Origin: a virus
Taxonomy: Duplodnaviria > Heunggongvirae > Uroviricota > Caudoviricetes
DNA length: 11,363 bases
Direction: 5' to 3' (one strand)
IMG/VR virus record: IMGVR_UViG_2563366799_000008
The notes beneath the pieces were generated by a model. It was not told where the DNA came from. It did not search any database and worked only from the letters and a program-made list of their open reading frames with translations. Position 1 is the first letter of the stretch; each line of letters begins with the position of its first letter. Shown piece after piece: positions 1 through 9,724 of this stretch. The translations under genes were made by a program, and so were the position numbers.

Positions 1-742
<742 letters not shown>

Positions 743-831
743 ATGAGACTTCATATTATAACTATAATTATGTAAAAAAGGCTGGTATTTTATACCTTGA
801 GGAAAATAGATAAGAGGAATGAGGTTTGGTT

Positions 832-2223
832 ATGATGAATTATACTGATGAGTCAACTTTTCTTGAAAAGTACAAACCGTTTAGGAAGTTTTGGACAATT
901 TTATCACCTCATTATGTATCTTTAATGCATGCACTTGCCAAAATGATAAGGGGAGGGAATCCAATTCAAGAACTACCTTCCAATGATGAGGATTTTCTTG
1001 CAGAGTATGAAACCTGTCTCAAAAATTGGAAAGACTCACAAAAAATCATATCTTTTGAGATTATTATTCGGCTGAGAGATATAAAAAGATTGGAAACTGA
1101 AAAAAAAGAGCACCATCGAAACAAGGATAAAGAAAATAAAGAAAAGTGTATTGATGAAATAAGTTTAAAAAAATTTGAAATTCTTATTCTTCGCCGTTGT
1201 ATTGACTCAATAATTTGGAGCATTCTTGATGAAGAACACTCTAGTTTGCGGCGTTTACCTATTAATGCAAGCAATGACAATCTATCAGAAGATAACATAA
1301 TTGATTCTATGGTCGCAGCCGATCTTATCAACCAGGACAAACACTCCGTAGCGATTGTCTCTGACATGAGCACATTTGTTCATGTGGGAGATTTAGTCAC
1401 CTTTAATCTACTGGATGGCTTCCAGCTCGTGGAAGTTAAAACAGGTGAAAAGAATAATGAGCTTTATGAAGCTGCTGAATTTTCTGTTATCTCAGAATGT
1501 CCGCACTTTGAAGAAAACTTCATTAACAATATGCCTGATAATGATGTTAAGCAATTTAATCGCATAAAAAGGCAAATCATTCGTGGCATGAATGTTCTGG
1601 AGGCGATTAATACTGGCGAGGGCTTTGACAACTTTCATCAGTCTAAAGTTAAAATCAATGAGATAGATCATCCGTCTGAATTTTATACCCACCGCTTAGT
1701 TAAAATGTGGGAGATTATTCGCGGAGGAAAAAATTGGGCAATTGATACTATTGATGAATGTTTGTTCTTAGGTATGTACCGTGATTCTGAAATGGGCTTT
1801 GTTGCCTTCAATGGATGGATGGATAGTCTCGGTATAAAAAGCCCTGTTGTGAATATAAATGATTCATTCTTTGACCCTTTGTCTCGACCATTTATGAGTT
1901 TGCATCTGCCAACTGAAATGCTCTCCGATCTCATGTCGGGACAAATAATCATCGTCATGTGTTTTGACAATGAACTTTTTTTTCACCGTGCTAACAAAAC
2001 GTACCCGGGTTTATATCTCCTTAGCGATGCAGCAAGAACAAAGCAGCCATTAGAAAATATTCTTCGTGTTGGTTCACAAGGGATAGCTTCTTACGTAGAT
2101 GGGAATACCAGCTTTTTAGGTAATGGTATTGAATCCCGTATCCTTTTCGATCAGCAACGACCCGACAACATTATTGAGTGGAGCTATGCTAGAAGCGATC
2201 TCAAAAAGCAACATGAAGCATAA
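832..2223 (+). CDS. hypothetical protein with a PD-(D/E)xK nuclease-like motif; candidate defence effector
   Basis: 463-aa ORF; track start TTG 826, but ATG 832 is preceded by GAGG at 821-824. About 33% GC. Residues HVGDLVTF...QLVEVK (nt ~1390-1440) fit the D...ExK catalytic signature. Lys/Glu-rich predicted helical stretch at residues ~80-125. No Walker A motif seen. Confidence 0.75.
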   Translation: MMNYTDESTFLEKYKPFRKFWTILSPHYVSLMHALAKMIRGGNPIQELPSNDEDFLAEYETCLKNWKDSQKIISFEIIIRLRDIKRLETEKKEHHRNKDKENKEKCIDEISLKKFEILILRRCIDSIIWSILDEEHSSLRRLPINASNDNLSEDNIIDSMVAADLINQDKHSVAIVSDMSTFVHVGDLVTFNLLDGFQLVEVKTGEKNNELYEAAEFSVISECPHFEENFINNMPDNDVKQFNRIKRQIIRGMNVLEAINTGEGFDNFHQSKVKINEIDHPSEFYTHRLVKMWEIIRGGKNWAIDTIDECLFLGMYRDSEMGFVAFNGWMDSLGIKSPVVNINDSFFDPLSRPFMSLHLPTEMLSDLMSGQIIIVMCFDNELFFHRANKTYPGLYLLSDAARTKQPLENILRVGSQGIASYVDGNTSFLGNGIESRILFDQQRPDNIIEWSYARSDLKKQHEA

Positions 2224-2948: not shown

Positions 2949-4019
2949 TTACCCCCTGAAGCCCGGCGGAATTTCGTTATCCGGTTCAGAAATATGATTC
3001 ACACAACGCTGGTTGTTCGTGCCGCTTACCGGGAGCAACCAGGGGTTCTCAAAATTCCGGTCCGGTCCAAAAAACGTCGTCGCTCGCTGAACAAATTCCG
3101 TTCCCGTTTTCCCGGTAGCCGCCAAGTATCTTGCGTAACGCCTCACGCCATCCAGCATGGCCTCTGGTGGCACCCCCTCGCGTAATCTGGCCTTCCAGGC
3201 ACTGAAAGCGGATTTCTTCGGGTTTGCTCCGGCACGCAACGGGTACTCCCGCCAGACCTGTTCGAACACATCCGGATAATCCACTCGTCCCACAGACTGC
3301 CCGGTGTTTTCCGGGACTACCCGATCGGCTTCCCGCTGAATGGCGGAATCGGCTTCGGGCTGCTGCAGTTGGTGTGATTGCTCCGGCCTTGCGGTCATCA
3401 CCTGCTGCACAGCGCCCGAATCGGCTTTCAGCGCATACGCTGAATCGGCTTCCGGTGTCGTGCCTGCTGGCTGACCAAGATTGACGGTCTGAACATCCCC
3501 TGCCTGGTTCGTGGCGTTTTTTACGCCATGGACCATAGTGTTTTGATCTTCTTGATCTGTATCTTTATCTGTATCTTTATCTTTCGTGACTCGTCGTGAC
3601 ATGTGCGTGACATTTCGTGACGCGCCGTGACAATCGCCATTTTGTTCCCGCTTTCTTTCCCTCTCTCGCTGCGCCCTCTTGCGCTCTGCAGGAGATTTTG
3701 CGGTTTGCGAAATATTGCCGTTGTCCTCTTTAAGCACCTGGCGTTTTTCCCATCCAGTGATTAAATCACCATCAAGTACCCGCCCCTGCATCGTCTGCAA
3801 AATTGAATCAATTACCTCTTCTGTCACGTCGAGCGCACTTGCCAAATCTTCTGTCGTGACATCAATGTGACCTCGCGTGACATTTCGTGACGCGCTCACC
3901 AAGAGGTGGATATACACTGCCATCACTGTTGCAATTGGCTGCCCTGACACCCTGGCAATTGTTCGCCACTTAGGGTCATTTGGCATGTCATGCCATAATC
4001 TGAGCCAGGCGTTAGCCAT
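2949..4019 (-). CDS. phage replication initiation protein (lambda O-like / YdaU-like replisome organiser)
   Basis: Track ORF 2949-4025; ATG at 4019 preferred (MANAWLRLWHDMPNDPKW...). C-terminal FEQVWREYPLRAGANPKKSAFSAWKARL resembles prophage replication proteins. Internal iteron clusters and an AT-rich tandem repeat lie within the coding sequence, as in lambda O. Confidence 0.8.
   Translation of the reverse strand: MANAWLRLWHDMPNDPKWRTIARVSGQPIATVMAVYIHLLVSASRNVTRGHIDVTTEDLASALDVTEEVIDSILQTMQGRVLDGDLITGWEKRQVLKEDNGNISQTAKSPAERKRAQRERERKREQNGDCHGASRNVTHMSRRVTKDKDTDKDTDQEDQNTMVHGVKNATNQAGDVQTVNLGQPAGTTPEADSAYALKADSGAVQQVMTARPEQSHQLQQPEADSAIQREADRVVPENTGQSVGRVDYPDVFEQVWREYPLRAGANPKKSAFSAWKARLREGVPPEAMLDGVRRYARYLAATGKTGTEFVQRATTFFGPDRNFENPWLLPVSGTNNQRCVNHISEPDNEIPPGFRG
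3545..3584. repeat. AT-rich tandem hexamer repeat (ATCTKT units) inside the O-like gene
   Basis: atctgt atcttt atctgt atcttt atcttt at 3555-3584, preceded by gatctt. Encodes the KDKDTDKDTD linker on the - strand. Lies directly beside iteron cluster 1. Confidence 0.7.
3585..3631. repeat. iteron cluster 1: five CGTGAC direct repeats at ~10-11 bp spacing (putative replication origin)
   Basis: CGTGAC at 3585, 3595, 3606, 3616 and 3626. The 21-bp block gcgtgacatttcgtgacgcgc (3605-3625) recurs exactly at 3875-3895. Confidence 0.6.
3855..3895. repeat. iteron cluster 2: four (C/T)GTGAC direct repeats at ~10-11 bp spacing
   Basis: CGTGAC at 3855, TGTGAC at 3866, CGTGAC at 3876 and 3886. An inverted copy (gtcacg) sits at 3824-3829. 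Contains the exact 21-bp copy of 3605-3625. Confidence 0.6.
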
Positions 4020-6555: not shown

Positions 6556-6613
6556 TTTCTGGTGACGTTTGGCGGTATCAGTTTTACTCCGTGACTGCTC
6601 TGCCGCCGTTTTT
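6556..6613 (+). ncRNA. dicF: DicF small regulatory RNA (ftsZ-targeting, Hfq-dependent) with 3' T-tract
   Basis: tttctggtgacgtttggcggtatcagttttactccgtgactgctctgccgcc followed by gttttt matches the ~53-nt DicF sequence as I remember it. Lies about 170 bp upstream of dicB, as in Qin. Confidence 0.8.
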
Positions 6614-7252: not shown

Positions 7253-9724
7253 ATGAGTAAAGTCTTTATTTGCGCCGCTATTCCTGACGAACTGGCAACA
7301 AGGGAAGAAGGCGCTGTGGCTGTAGCCACAGCCATTGAAGCTGGCGACGAACGCCGTGCTCGAGCAAAATTTCACTGGCAGTTCCTGGAACATTATCCGG
7401 CTGCTCAGGACTGCGCTTATAAATTTATTGTCTGCGAGGATAAACCTGGCATACCCCGCCCTGCCCTCGATTCATGGGATGCTGAATATATGCAGGAAAA
7501 CCGCTGGGATGAGGAGTCTGCTTCTTTTGTCCCGGTTGAGACTGAATCCGATCCGATGAACGTCACTTTTGACAAGCTGGCCCCTGAAGTACAGAACGCT
7601 GTCATGGTTAAGTTCGACACATGTGAAAACATCACCGTTGATATGGTTATTAGCGCACAGGAATTGTTGCAGGAAGACATGGCAACATTCGACGGACATA
7701 TCGTTGAAGCGTTGATGAAAATGCCAGAAGTTAACGCCATGTATCCGGAGCTTAAGTTGCACGCCATTGGGTGGGTTAAGCATAAATGTATTCCTGGTGC
7801 TAAATGGCCCGAAATTCAGGCAGAGATGCGCATCTGGAAAAAACGTCGCGAAGGTGAACGCAAGGAAACCGGAAAATACACGTCTGTTGTTGATCTCGCC
7901 CGCGCCAGAGCCAATCAACAGTACACTGAAAATTCAACAGGAAAAATCAGCCCGGTCATTGCTGCCATTCATCGCGAATACAAGCAGACATGGAAAACAC
8001 TGGATGACGAACTGGCCTACGCTCTCTGGCCTGGTGATGTAGATGCCGGAAACATTGACGGCAGCATCCATCGCTGGGCAAAAAATGAAGTTATCGACAA
8101 CGACCGCGAAGACTGGAAGCGTATCTCGGCATCAATGCGCAAACAGCCTGATGCCCTTCGCTACGACCGCCAGACTATTTTTGGCCTTGTCCGTGAACGT
8201 CCGATCGACATTCACAAAGACCCTGTGGCACTGAACAAATACATTACTGAATACCTGACTACAAAGGGCGTGTTTGAAGATGAAGGAACAAATCAGAGCG
8301 CAACTGATACTCTCTCGTCGCCAGTACCAGAAACTGATGCAGTGGAAACGGCAATTCCAGACAACGAAAAAACCGAATGCAAAGTGGAAGTCGAACCATC
8401 TGTAGAACGTGAGGGGCCGTTCTACTTCCTCTTCACCGACAAGGATGGCGAAAAATACGGTCGCGCAAACAAACTTTCTGGTCTGGATAAGGCGCTGTCT
8501 GCTGGGGCTACTGAAATCACGAAAGAAGAATATTTCGCCCGCAAAAACGGTACATACTCAGGTTCACAACAAAATACTGGTGCATCTGACACGACCGCAC
8601 AACCAGGGTCAGTAAAAGTTACCGCTGACGAAGTAAACAAAATTATGCAGGCAGCCAATATCAGCCAGCCTGACGCCGATGAACTGCTTGCAGTATCACG
8701 TGGTGAATTTGTTGAAGGGATTAGCGACCCGAATGATCCGAAATGGGTTAAGGGGATCCAGACCCGCGATTCTGTGAACCAGAACCAGCAAGAAACGGAA
8801 CAGAACGACCAGAAAGCGGAACAAAACAGCCCAAATACGCAACAAAACGAGCCAGAAACAAAACAACCTGAACCAGTAGTGCAACAGGAACCGGAAAAGA
8901 TCTGCACCGCCTGCGGTCATAGCGGTGGCGGCAACTGCCCTGATTGTGGTGCGGTGATGGGTGACGCAACATACCAGGAAATATTCGATGGAGAGAATCA
9001 GCCTGAAGTTCAGGAAAATGATCCGGAGGAAATGGAAGGCACTGCGCATCAGCACAAGGAGAACACTGGCGGCAATCAGCATCACAATAGCGATAATGAA
9101 ACTGGCGAGACGGCAGATCACTCAATTAAGGTGAACGGTCATCACGAAATCACATCCACCAGCAGGACGTGTGACCATCTAATGATCGACCTTGAAACCA
9201 TGGGAAAAAATCCTGATGCCCCGATCATCTCAATAGGTGCAATATTTTTCGATCCGCAAACCGGAGATATGGGACCGGAATTTAGTAAGACTATCGATCT
9301 GGAAACTGCTGGCGGAGTCATTGATCGGGACACCATTAAATGGTGGCTTAAGCAATCACGCGAAGCGCAATCTGCCATTATGACCGATGAAATCCCGTTA
9401 GATGATGCACTGTTACAATTGCGGGAATTTATCGACGAAAACTCCGGTGAATTTTTTGTTCATGTCTGGGGAAATGGAGCCAACTTCGACAACACGATTT
9501 TGCGCCGTTCATACGAACGGCAGGGAATCCCCTGCCCGTGGCGTTACTACAACGATCGCGATGTACGCACAATCGTTGAGCTGGGGAAAGCCATAGACTT
9601 CGATGCCAGAACGGCTATTCCATTCGAAGGTGAGCGCCATAATGCACTTGATGACGCCCGTTACCAGGCAAAATACGTTTCAGCTATCTGGCAAAAACTG
9701 ATCCCGAGTCAGGCTGATTCTTAA
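7253..9724 (+). CDS. exodeoxyribonuclease VIII-like early protein (YdfE-like) with C-terminal DnaQ-like DEDDh 3'-5' exonuclease domain
   Basis: 823-aa ORF with GAGG SD. C-terminus carries Exo I (IDLETMG, D at nt 9188), Exo II (WGNGANFDNTIL) and Exo III (HNALDDARY) motifs. Middle has a Q/N/E-rich low-complexity linker (~8760-8900) and a CTACGHSGGGNCPDCG zinc-ribbon-like motif (~8910-8960). Confidence 0.9.
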   Translation: MSKVFICAAIPDELATREEGAVAVATAIEAGDERRARAKFHWQFLEHYPAAQDCAYKFIVCEDKPGIPRPALDSWDAEYMQENRWDEESASFVPVETESDPMNVTFDKLAPEVQNAVMVKFDTCENITVDMVISAQELLQEDMATFDGHIVEALMKMPEVNAMYPELKLHAIGWVKHKCIPGAKWPEIQAEMRIWKKRREGERKETGKYTSVVDLARARANQQYTENSTGKISPVIAAIHREYKQTWKTLDDELAYALWPGDVDAGNIDGSIHRWAKNEVIDNDREDWKRISASMRKQPDALRYDRQTIFGLVRERPIDIHKDPVALNKYITEYLTTKGVFEDEGTNQSATDTLSSPVPETDAVETAIPDNEKTECKVEVEPSVEREGPFYFLFTDKDGEKYGRANKLSGLDKALSAGATEITKEEYFARKNGTYSGSQQNTGASDTTAQPGSVKVTADEVNKIMQAANISQPDADELLAVSRGEFVEGISDPNDPKWVKGIQTRDSVNQNQQETEQNDQKAEQNSPNTQQNEPETKQPEPVVQQEPEKICTACGHSGGGNCPDCGAVMGDATYQEIFDGENQPEVQENDPEEMEGTAHQHKENTGGNQHHNSDNETGETADHSIKVNGHHEITSTSRTCDHLMIDLETMGKNPDAPIISIGAIFFDPQTGDMGPEFSKTIDLETAGGVIDRDTIKWWLKQSREAQSAIMTDEIPLDDALLQLREFIDENSGEFFVHVWGNGANFDNTILRRSYERQGIPCPWRYYNDRDVRTIVELGKAIDFDARTAIPFEGERHNALDDARYQAKYVSAIWQKLIPSQADS

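Follow-up and report, generated by a model that had tools for sequence, protein, structure and literature searches.

Where does replication start in a lambdoid prophage whose initiator stands alone, with no origin marked in its annotation? This question is raised by a stretch of 11,363 nucleotides (nt) of Caudoviricetes DNA (IMG/VR record IMGVR_UViG_2563366799_000008; hereafter the window, meaning the whole stretch), in which the minus-strand open reading frame (ORF) 2949-4019 contains two clusters of a short direct repeat. The original prediction, made from the letters alone, held that these repeats are the iterons of a lambda-like origin lying within a replication gene, and that their division into two blocks is less usual. 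Our analysis bears this out: selection acting on the DNA, concerted change of the repeat core in both clusters, restriction of the repeats to this gene and a layout like that of the lambda origin (ori-lambda) together make it probable that the region 3505-3891 is a prophage replication origin built into the gene of its own initiator, with the second array serving as an auxiliary. The gene and its repeats are as follows.

2949..4019, minus strand: replication initiator gene, 356 amino acids (aa), with ATG at 4019 and stop at 2949-2951, from the ORF and its translation
3585..3631, minus strand: linker iteron array, five copies of GTCACG at gene nt 389-435, spaced by 10/10/11/10 base pairs (bp), in all three frames
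3855..3891, minus strand: upstream ('N') iteron array, four copies of GTCAC(G/A) spaced by 10/10/11 bp
3823..3828, plus strand: single inverted copy, with GTCACG on the plus strand, weakly supported as a functional site

The window holds 14 YGTGAC sites on both strands where 9.0 ± 3.2 are expected, so the total is unremarkable; 10 of the 14 fall inside 3585-3891, and such a concentration, 10 or more of 14 sites within any 307-bp span, has a chance probability of ~7e-12. The site scan confirmed the predicted clusters of (C/T)GTGAC, five copies at 3585-3631 and four at 3855-3891, with about one copy per helical turn. On the plus strand, the motif starts at 3585, 3595, 3606, 3616 and 3626 in the linker array and at 3855, 3866 (TGTGAC), 3876 and 3886 in the upstream array, the copies of which are read on the coding strand at 3886-3891, 3876-3881, 3866-3871 (GTCACA) and 3855-3860. 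The iteron unit is 10-11 bp long and consists of an asymmetric 6-7-bp core, (T)GTCACG(C/A), and a variable spacer. The two blocks had been described as lying about 270 bp apart, in agreement with the 260-270 bp that we measured between the array starts; from the last copy of one array to the first of the other the distance is 229 bp. The arrays also have in common, as had been noticed, an exact 21-bp block, GCGTGACATTTCGTGACGCGC, which occurs at 3605-3625 and 3875-3895 and is the sole repeated 21-mer of the window. The inverted copy does exist, one base away from the 3824-3829 originally given; about half of the GTCACG-class genes described below have it, no counterpart was found in the other core classes, and synonymous conservation is only moderately higher there (0.76, n = 2). 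The ORF encloses both arrays, the linker array at the place where the N- and C-terminal modules of the protein join and the upstream array in the codons for the end of helix 29-45 and the loop after it (SASRNVTRGHIDVT).

The repeats are selected as DNA and not as protein sequence. All three reading frames are used by the nine direct GTCAC(G/A) copies, which are translated as V-T, S-R and x-H-x and are therefore not a peptide repeat. When synonymous codons were permuted with the protein held fixed, 2.4 ± 1.2 GTCACR copies were obtained, against the nine observed, and nine were reached in 1 of 20,000 cases; this null is conservative because the repeats themselves have shaped the protein sequence. 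Codon positions were also compared across 25 GTCACG-class species with 59-95% aa identity, in which degenerate amino acids of equal conservation in the rest of the domain served as controls. Third codon positions in the hexamers of the upstream array were 95% conserved, compared with 51-53% elsewhere (Mann-Whitney p=1.8e-5). Frame usage, the synonymous-permutation null and the clustering statistic rule out chance or a peptide repeat as the source of the arrays.

To follow the arrays beyond the window, we took one locus per species: 66 species were fetched, 62 genes were tabulated, and 51 loci were used for the flank, tract and hairpin counts. In nearly every homologue gene the commonest 6-mer is an iteron-like core, and these cores form two arrays, at gene nt ~117-165 and ~345-450, within which neighbouring copies are spaced by 10 bp (163 times) or 11 bp (34 times). 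The core varies by lineage, being GTCACG, GTAACG, CGAACG or GTGACG, and ACG is common to all four. The linker array was found in 50 of the 62 homologues, with lineage-specific cores, and the upstream array at the matching gene position in 48, of which 47 share the core of their linker array (24 with GTCACG, 17 with CGAACG and 6 with GTAACG). The remaining genes comprise one with a mixed core, three with the linker array only, one with the upstream array only and ten with none of the four cores. Absence of the repeats from functional homologues had been named as an outcome that would tell against an origin; instead, they are kept in about 50 species.

The arrays are specific to this gene. No comparable array was found elsewhere in the prophage of 25 kilobases (kb) or in the ±3 kb flanks of the 51 loci, and among the neighbouring proteins of the window only the N domain of the initiator is present in all 26 GTCACG-class loci. 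Prophages from related hosts differ in core class, which makes a host factor unlikely as the reader of the iterons. The gaps between the two arrays range from 127 to 340 bp across homologues, and 23 of the 27 distinct gaps cluster near multiples of ~10 bp (Rayleigh p ~0.002). Because periods of 10.0 and 10.4 bp are indistinguishable here and the lineages are not independent, this clustering is suggestive of, and does not establish, helical phasing between the arrays.

Individual homologues also bear on how iterons and codons share the same DNA. In two members of the GTAACG class (L105 and L109, gene nt 139-451), GTAACG is barred from the frame that gives TAA. Exact GTAACG copies in L105 occur in only two of the three frames, with upstream spacings of 21/21/43 bp and variants such as GTGACG between them, a pattern that would be the visible effect of an overlapping coding constraint on the iterons. 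In L085 (Escherichia albertii), the upstream array, at gene nt 129-186, exceeds that of the window by 21 bp. Since two iteron units, two helical turns and seven codons all come to 21 bp, this extension suggests that arrays grow by frame-preserving two-unit steps; the 21-bp block shared by the arrays of the window has the same length.

Directly after the linker array, in the direction of transcription, stand the two elements that would complete an origin.

3545..3584, no strand assigned: A/T-rich tract, candidate DNA-unwinding element, 27.5% G+C versus 53.9% for the whole gene, at gene nt 436-475
3505..3535, no strand assigned: palindrome directly downstream of the A-rich tract, with 13-nt arms that are 85% complementary and a 5-nt loop, at gene nt 485-515

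The AT-rich tandem repeat that had been seen to abut the five-copy cluster was recovered by Tandem Repeats Finder as a 12-bp unit, TCTTTATCTGTA, present 2.8 times at 3550-3582, and as a 6-bp period at 3550-3584; it directly adjoins the array, and the G+C content agrees. On the coding strand the tract reads (GATAAAGATACA)n and codes for KDKDTDKDTDQED, showing purine/pyrimidine strand asymmetry and two GATC sites. Of all 40-mers in the gene, the one beginning at 3541 is the least stable, with -43.4 kcal/mol versus a gene mean of -57.3 ± 3.9. In 45 of the 51 homologues the 40 nt past the last iteron are at least 10 points AT-richer than the gene (66% versus 44% on average).

The palindrome folds as DNA with -8.7 kcal/mol (z=-3.1). 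It scores as terminator-like on the plus strand, and the promoter and terminator scan gave chance-level counts. In 23 of the 51 homologues a perfect hairpin, with a stem of 6 bp or more and usually a loop of 4 nt, begins 27-69 nt past the last iteron, and in 17 of the 51 this hairpin is the best of the whole gene (~2.5 expected, p=2e-10). Its sequence varies from gene to gene, with 4-nt loops of TGAC, TAAC, TATC or TGGC, and this variation suggests that the hairpin has been selected for its structure and not for its sequence. Examples are seen in L091, L095, L102, L117, L122, L125, L135 and L142, and the lambda counterpart lies at 863-890 of L150.

Two phages in which only half of the initiator is related to ours show how these elements are inherited. 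The protein of Pseudomonas phage P7869 has 69.5% aa identity to residues 1-138 only, and a primase/helicase gene comes next; its gene has both arrays in the corresponding positions, with GATAAAGATACAGAAGAAG after them, and the GATAAAGATACAG tract is kept. The protein of Shigella phage 75/02 Stx has 63.7% identity to residues 158-356 and a different N-terminus, and DnaC comes next; GTCACG is wholly absent from 75/02, and a (GAACAG)n run stands at the junction. These alignments indicate that the initiator protein is modular, with the N/C exchange point just after the A-rich tract. At the equivalent junction of 75/02 Stx (L003 2960-3000), the (GAACAG)n run is followed by the same palindrome as in the window. 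As this phage shares the C-module and the palindrome and carries other repeats, the palindrome travels with the C-module and the iterons with the N-module.

What kind of protein would read the iterons? RefSeq names it 'hypothetical protein' (WP_001262357), and the 98.9% identical protein of phage vB_EcoS-689R5 is annotated 'DNA replication protein O'. From end to end it matches PHROG 3729 'replication initiation protein' (E=3e-257), and residues 123-356 match the PHROG 'DnaD-like helicase loader'; NCBI names fragments 'phage replisome organizer'. The Pfam search with the initiator gave no family above threshold and only three weak, unrelated matches at E<=10. Its 1.2-kb region matches 2921 of 5426 complete Escherichia coli genomes, with 80% or more of the query covered in 1647 of these, and the N-domain family comprises 1990 cluster representatives at E<=1e-3 from gamma-, beta- and alpha-proteobacterial prophages. 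Two parts of the protein are of interest for an origin.

3636..4019, minus strand: N-terminal domain (aa 1-128), winged-helix-like with a basic helix at aa 110-127, the proposed iteron reader
2952..3023, minus strand: C-terminal tail GTNNQRCVNHISEPDNEIPPGFRG, resembling the final 24 residues of the E. coli primosomal protein DnaT

The AlphaFold2 (AF2) model of the N domain, with a mean predicted local distance difference test (pLDDT) score of 81.6, places helices at 29-45, 56-63 and 67-77, with a loop between the first two, followed by a beta wing, a disordered stretch and the basic helix 110-127. The fold search with this model supports only a general winged-helix resemblance. Pfam Phage_rep_org_N (PF09681) gave 16.6 bits versus a cut-off of 23.3 (E=0.008) and was colinear over 1-119 of 121 model positions. 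Outside the loop encoded by the iterons, the residues that distinguish the core classes are positions 114, 115, 117 (Q, Y or W) and 120 of the basic helix.

At the other end of the protein, the tail, ending ..VNHISEPDNEIPPGFRG, matches positions 156-179 of 179 of the NCBIfam DnaT model (E=7.5e-4) and PDB 6aep (E=0.0027, tail only). The initiator is not a full DnaT: on the DnaT equivalog model it scores 19.2 bits versus a cut-off of 201, at the tail positions only. This tail (..S.PD..IPPGFRG), nearly identical to the final 20-24 residues of DnaT, also stands on Rac YdaU (L154 2921-2977), on the 75/02 Stx initiator (L003 3514-3585) and on other, unrelated C-modules of the family (L093, L103 and L109). 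All of these proteins may use it as a common means of engaging the host helicase-loading machinery. The C-terminal domain of DnaT makes filaments on single-stranded DNA in the preprimosome (PMC13377028).

From these features we propose how the origin would work. Along the gene, the core origin would consist of the five iterons at 3631-3585, the A/T-rich tract at 3584-3545 and the palindrome at 3535-3505, with the other four iterons at 3891-3855. The winged-helix domain and the basic helix would bind one core per helical turn in both arrays; the bound initiator would then oligomerise, possibly bridging the arrays, and the oligomer would destabilise the adjacent A-rich tract. The exchangeable C-terminal module with its DnaT-like tail would bring in the helicase-loading machinery of the host, since the initiator has neither a loader nor a helicase gene beside it: no P, DnaC or DnaB-type gene follows it in the prophage or in vB_EcoS-689R5, an isolated phage. 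Most likely, the upstream array serves as an auxiliary site for initiator binding, which may stabilise the complex by looping, or may limit initiator synthesis or copy number.

A more elaborate scheme is offered tentatively, and we think it rather doubtful as a whole. According to this scheme, the origin is bipartite, and an initiator filament bridges arrays ~22 helical turns apart, looping or wrapping the code for its own DNA-binding domain. Recognition would follow an evolvable code, in which the triplet that precedes the invariant ACG of the core on its 5' side (GTC, GTA or CGA) switches together with residues 114, 115, 117 and 120 of the basic helix. The triplet would also switch with the loop peptide coded by the upstream array, so that the coding and protein-binding roles of the same DNA co-evolve. 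With the hairpin after the unwinding element and the DnaT-like tail, helicase loading would pass through the host primosome, and the solitary position of the initiator would be accounted for.

Several observations weigh against an origin at 3505-3891 or against parts of the mechanism. Homologues L121 and L146 are without the upstream array, and ten homologues show none of the four cores. Since the arrays and the N domain occupy the same stretch of DNA, their joint inheritance is in part unavoidable. Foldseek found no significant match in PDB for the N-domain model (best E=0.3; the list consists mostly of winged helix-turn-helix regulators), and the helix at the usual 'recognition' position in the model is acidic. 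Counts of DnaA boxes and oriC-type 13-mers in and near the A-rich tract were at chance level and none stood out; three adjacent weak 13-mer matches at 3554-3584 were not significant. The iterons are 10-11 bp long with an asymmetric core, whereas those of lambda are 18 bp long with internal dyad symmetry. Lambda O binds its iterons as a dimer, and with short asymmetric iterons in place of dyads the stoichiometry of the complex may differ. Finally, the papers examined define no role for the tail even in DnaT, and the recruitment of DnaB/DnaC in the preprimosome is still unexplained (PMC13377028).

Other explanations of the arrays fare less well than an origin. An unlikely one, though the best of them, is that the arrays bind the initiator mainly for control, through autoregulation or handcuffing of the P1 incA/plasmid type, with either the upstream array only or both arrays acting in this way. 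It would be consistent with the location of both arrays inside a transcribed gene, with the 229 bp that separate the upstream array from the A-rich tract, with the lack of an AT-rich tract of its own, with the two homologues that do without this array and with the wide range of inter-array gaps; on the other hand, the AT tract and palindrome that accompany the linker array at the domain junction are hard to explain as a pure operator. A control role is plausible for the upstream array, where it could coexist with a role in the origin, and is not plausible for the linker array.

We regard it as very improbable that the repeats are bound by another factor (a host protein, the YdaT/CII-like protein, Cro or the repressor) for regulation unrelated to the initiator. 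A sigma-70-like match, GTGACA..GACAAT at 3607-3634 on the plus strand, overlaps the array, as such matches do at the chance rate. Homologues of the YdaT-like, Cro-like, repressor and DUF977 proteins are present in only one or two of the 26 GTCACG loci, and both the variation of core class among prophages of related hosts and the restriction of the arrays to this one gene of the prophage argue against such a factor. The idea that the repeats are a functionless by-product (a repetitive peptide, replication slippage or recombination scars at a module boundary) deserves hardly any credence, for although the identical 21-bp block suggests duplication or gene conversion between the arrays and the linker array sits at a module junction, it is contradicted by the three-frame reading, the excess over the synonymous-permutation null, the synonymous conservation in 25 species and the concerted core change in both arrays in three lineages.

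The window belongs to a lambdoid prophage of E. coli that occupies the Qin site, adjoins rspB/ynfA and carries dicB, ydfD and DicF. One of these is listed below.

6557-6608, plus strand: DicF antisense RNA, Rfam RF00039, 72.5 bits

With dicB and ydfD also present in the matching genome, DicF marks the prophage as Qin-type and not Rac-type. The Rfam scan found nothing inside the initiator gene and DicF alone elsewhere in the window. The gene order is repressor, Cro-like helix-turn-helix protein, YdaT/CII-like protein, initiator and then a DUF977/Ren-like gene. Downstream of this replication module lies an AT-rich insert (131-2223, plus strand) with an abortive-infection gene of the AbiH family, truncated by the start of the window, and an ORF of 465 aa that has no Pfam match; the insert looks like a defence moron. 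At 7253-9724 (plus strand), in the position of recE, is an 823-aa 'exonuclease' whose C-terminal domain is Rv2179c-like 3'-5' exoribonuclease; a 21-bp tandem repeat occurs four times at 8783-8866, in the low-complexity middle part of this gene.

No description of this initiator family or its iterons was found in the literature, and the Stx-phage Eru paper (PMC8044961) does not discuss origins or iterons. The kind of origin is a known one, as iteron origins inside the initiator gene are classical in lambda and P22, and the region described here is very probably an undescribed variant of it. What sets it apart are the different initiator family, the short asymmetric iterons at one per helical turn, the conserved second array in the code for the DNA-binding domain, the at least three natural specificity classes and the lone initiator with a DnaT-like tail. 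If our reading of 3505-3891 as an origin is correct, the replication origins of such prophages could be annotated from sequence alone; at least three initiator/iteron specificity classes would be available for studying how recognition evolves under an overlapping coding constraint; and the DnaT-like tail would offer a candidate route to host helicase loading for initiators that have no loader gene beside them. Our general view of phage replication, set by lambda, would stay unchanged.

How close, then, is the region to the lambda origin, the paradigm of this kind (PMC7466680)? The linker array, at nt 389-435 of its gene, corresponds in place to the four annotated iterons at nt 349-433 of O, and the annotated origin of P22, at nt 353-497 of gene 18, likewise lies inside the initiator gene. 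As in lambda, transcription would pass first through direct repeats, next through an A-rich, purine-biased tract and last through a palindrome, the arms of which are 12 nt in lambda. As in both lambda and P22, the putative origin is located where the DNA-binding and partner-recruiting halves of the protein join, and the N domain and the iterons exchange as one module. Unlike lambda, a second conserved array is present within the region coding for the DNA-binding domain, and no P, DnaC or DnaB-type gene follows. Calling the gene 'O-like', as the original prediction did, is therefore apt for its role and architecture and not for its ancestry as far as Pfam and hhalign can detect it: there was no Pfam match to Phage_rep_O, and hhalign of the family alignment against lambda O gave a probability of 0.07%.

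In SPP1, the 'replisome organizer' G38P, which typifies the Phage_rep_org_N family, binds repeats inside its own gene (oriL, gene 38) and at a second, distant site, oriR. There, the loader G39P and the helicase G40P are encoded downstream, whereas the initiator of the window is alone and its second site is 229 bp off in the same gene. In hhalign no homology to G38P was found; the tests against lambda O, G38P and YdaU are weak for very distant homology because their templates are single sequences.

Comparison with ydaU of Rac, which had been recommended as a check, gave a divided answer: the layout is parallel and the tail is shared, and yet the N domains are unrelated and the prophage is at the Qin site. 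YdaU (DUF1376) occupies the same slot in the gene order (repressor, Cro-like, YdaT, initiator) and has the same DnaT-like tail. In BLASTP, the 19-residue C-terminal tail is 68% identical and the basic/KDTD linker gives a weak alignment (24% over 54 aa, E=0.006); none was obtained between the N-terminal domains, and YdaU was rejected as a homologue of the N domain. The gene has repeats of its own, four AACAGATGTTCAA-like copies spaced by 33/33/12 bp (L154 2472-2563, E. coli K-12), and a stretch coding for KDTDKD just downstream of them (aa ~160-166 in the protein alignment), in parallel with the gene of the window. It differs in its unrelated N domain, its other repeat sequence and the DnaC-like YdaV that comes next. 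Rac has been reported to have an active origin, oriJ (PMC3945230). The ydaU repeats could mark the location of oriJ at the level of sequence.

The use of two arrays also has counterparts. Among these are P4, with ori and crr, and P1, with oriR and incA, in each of which the same short initiator-binding repeat forms two separate clusters. In these systems the clusters are outside or beside the initiator gene, kilobases apart in P4 and devoted to plasmid-prophage copy control in P1, whereas here both lie within one coding sequence.

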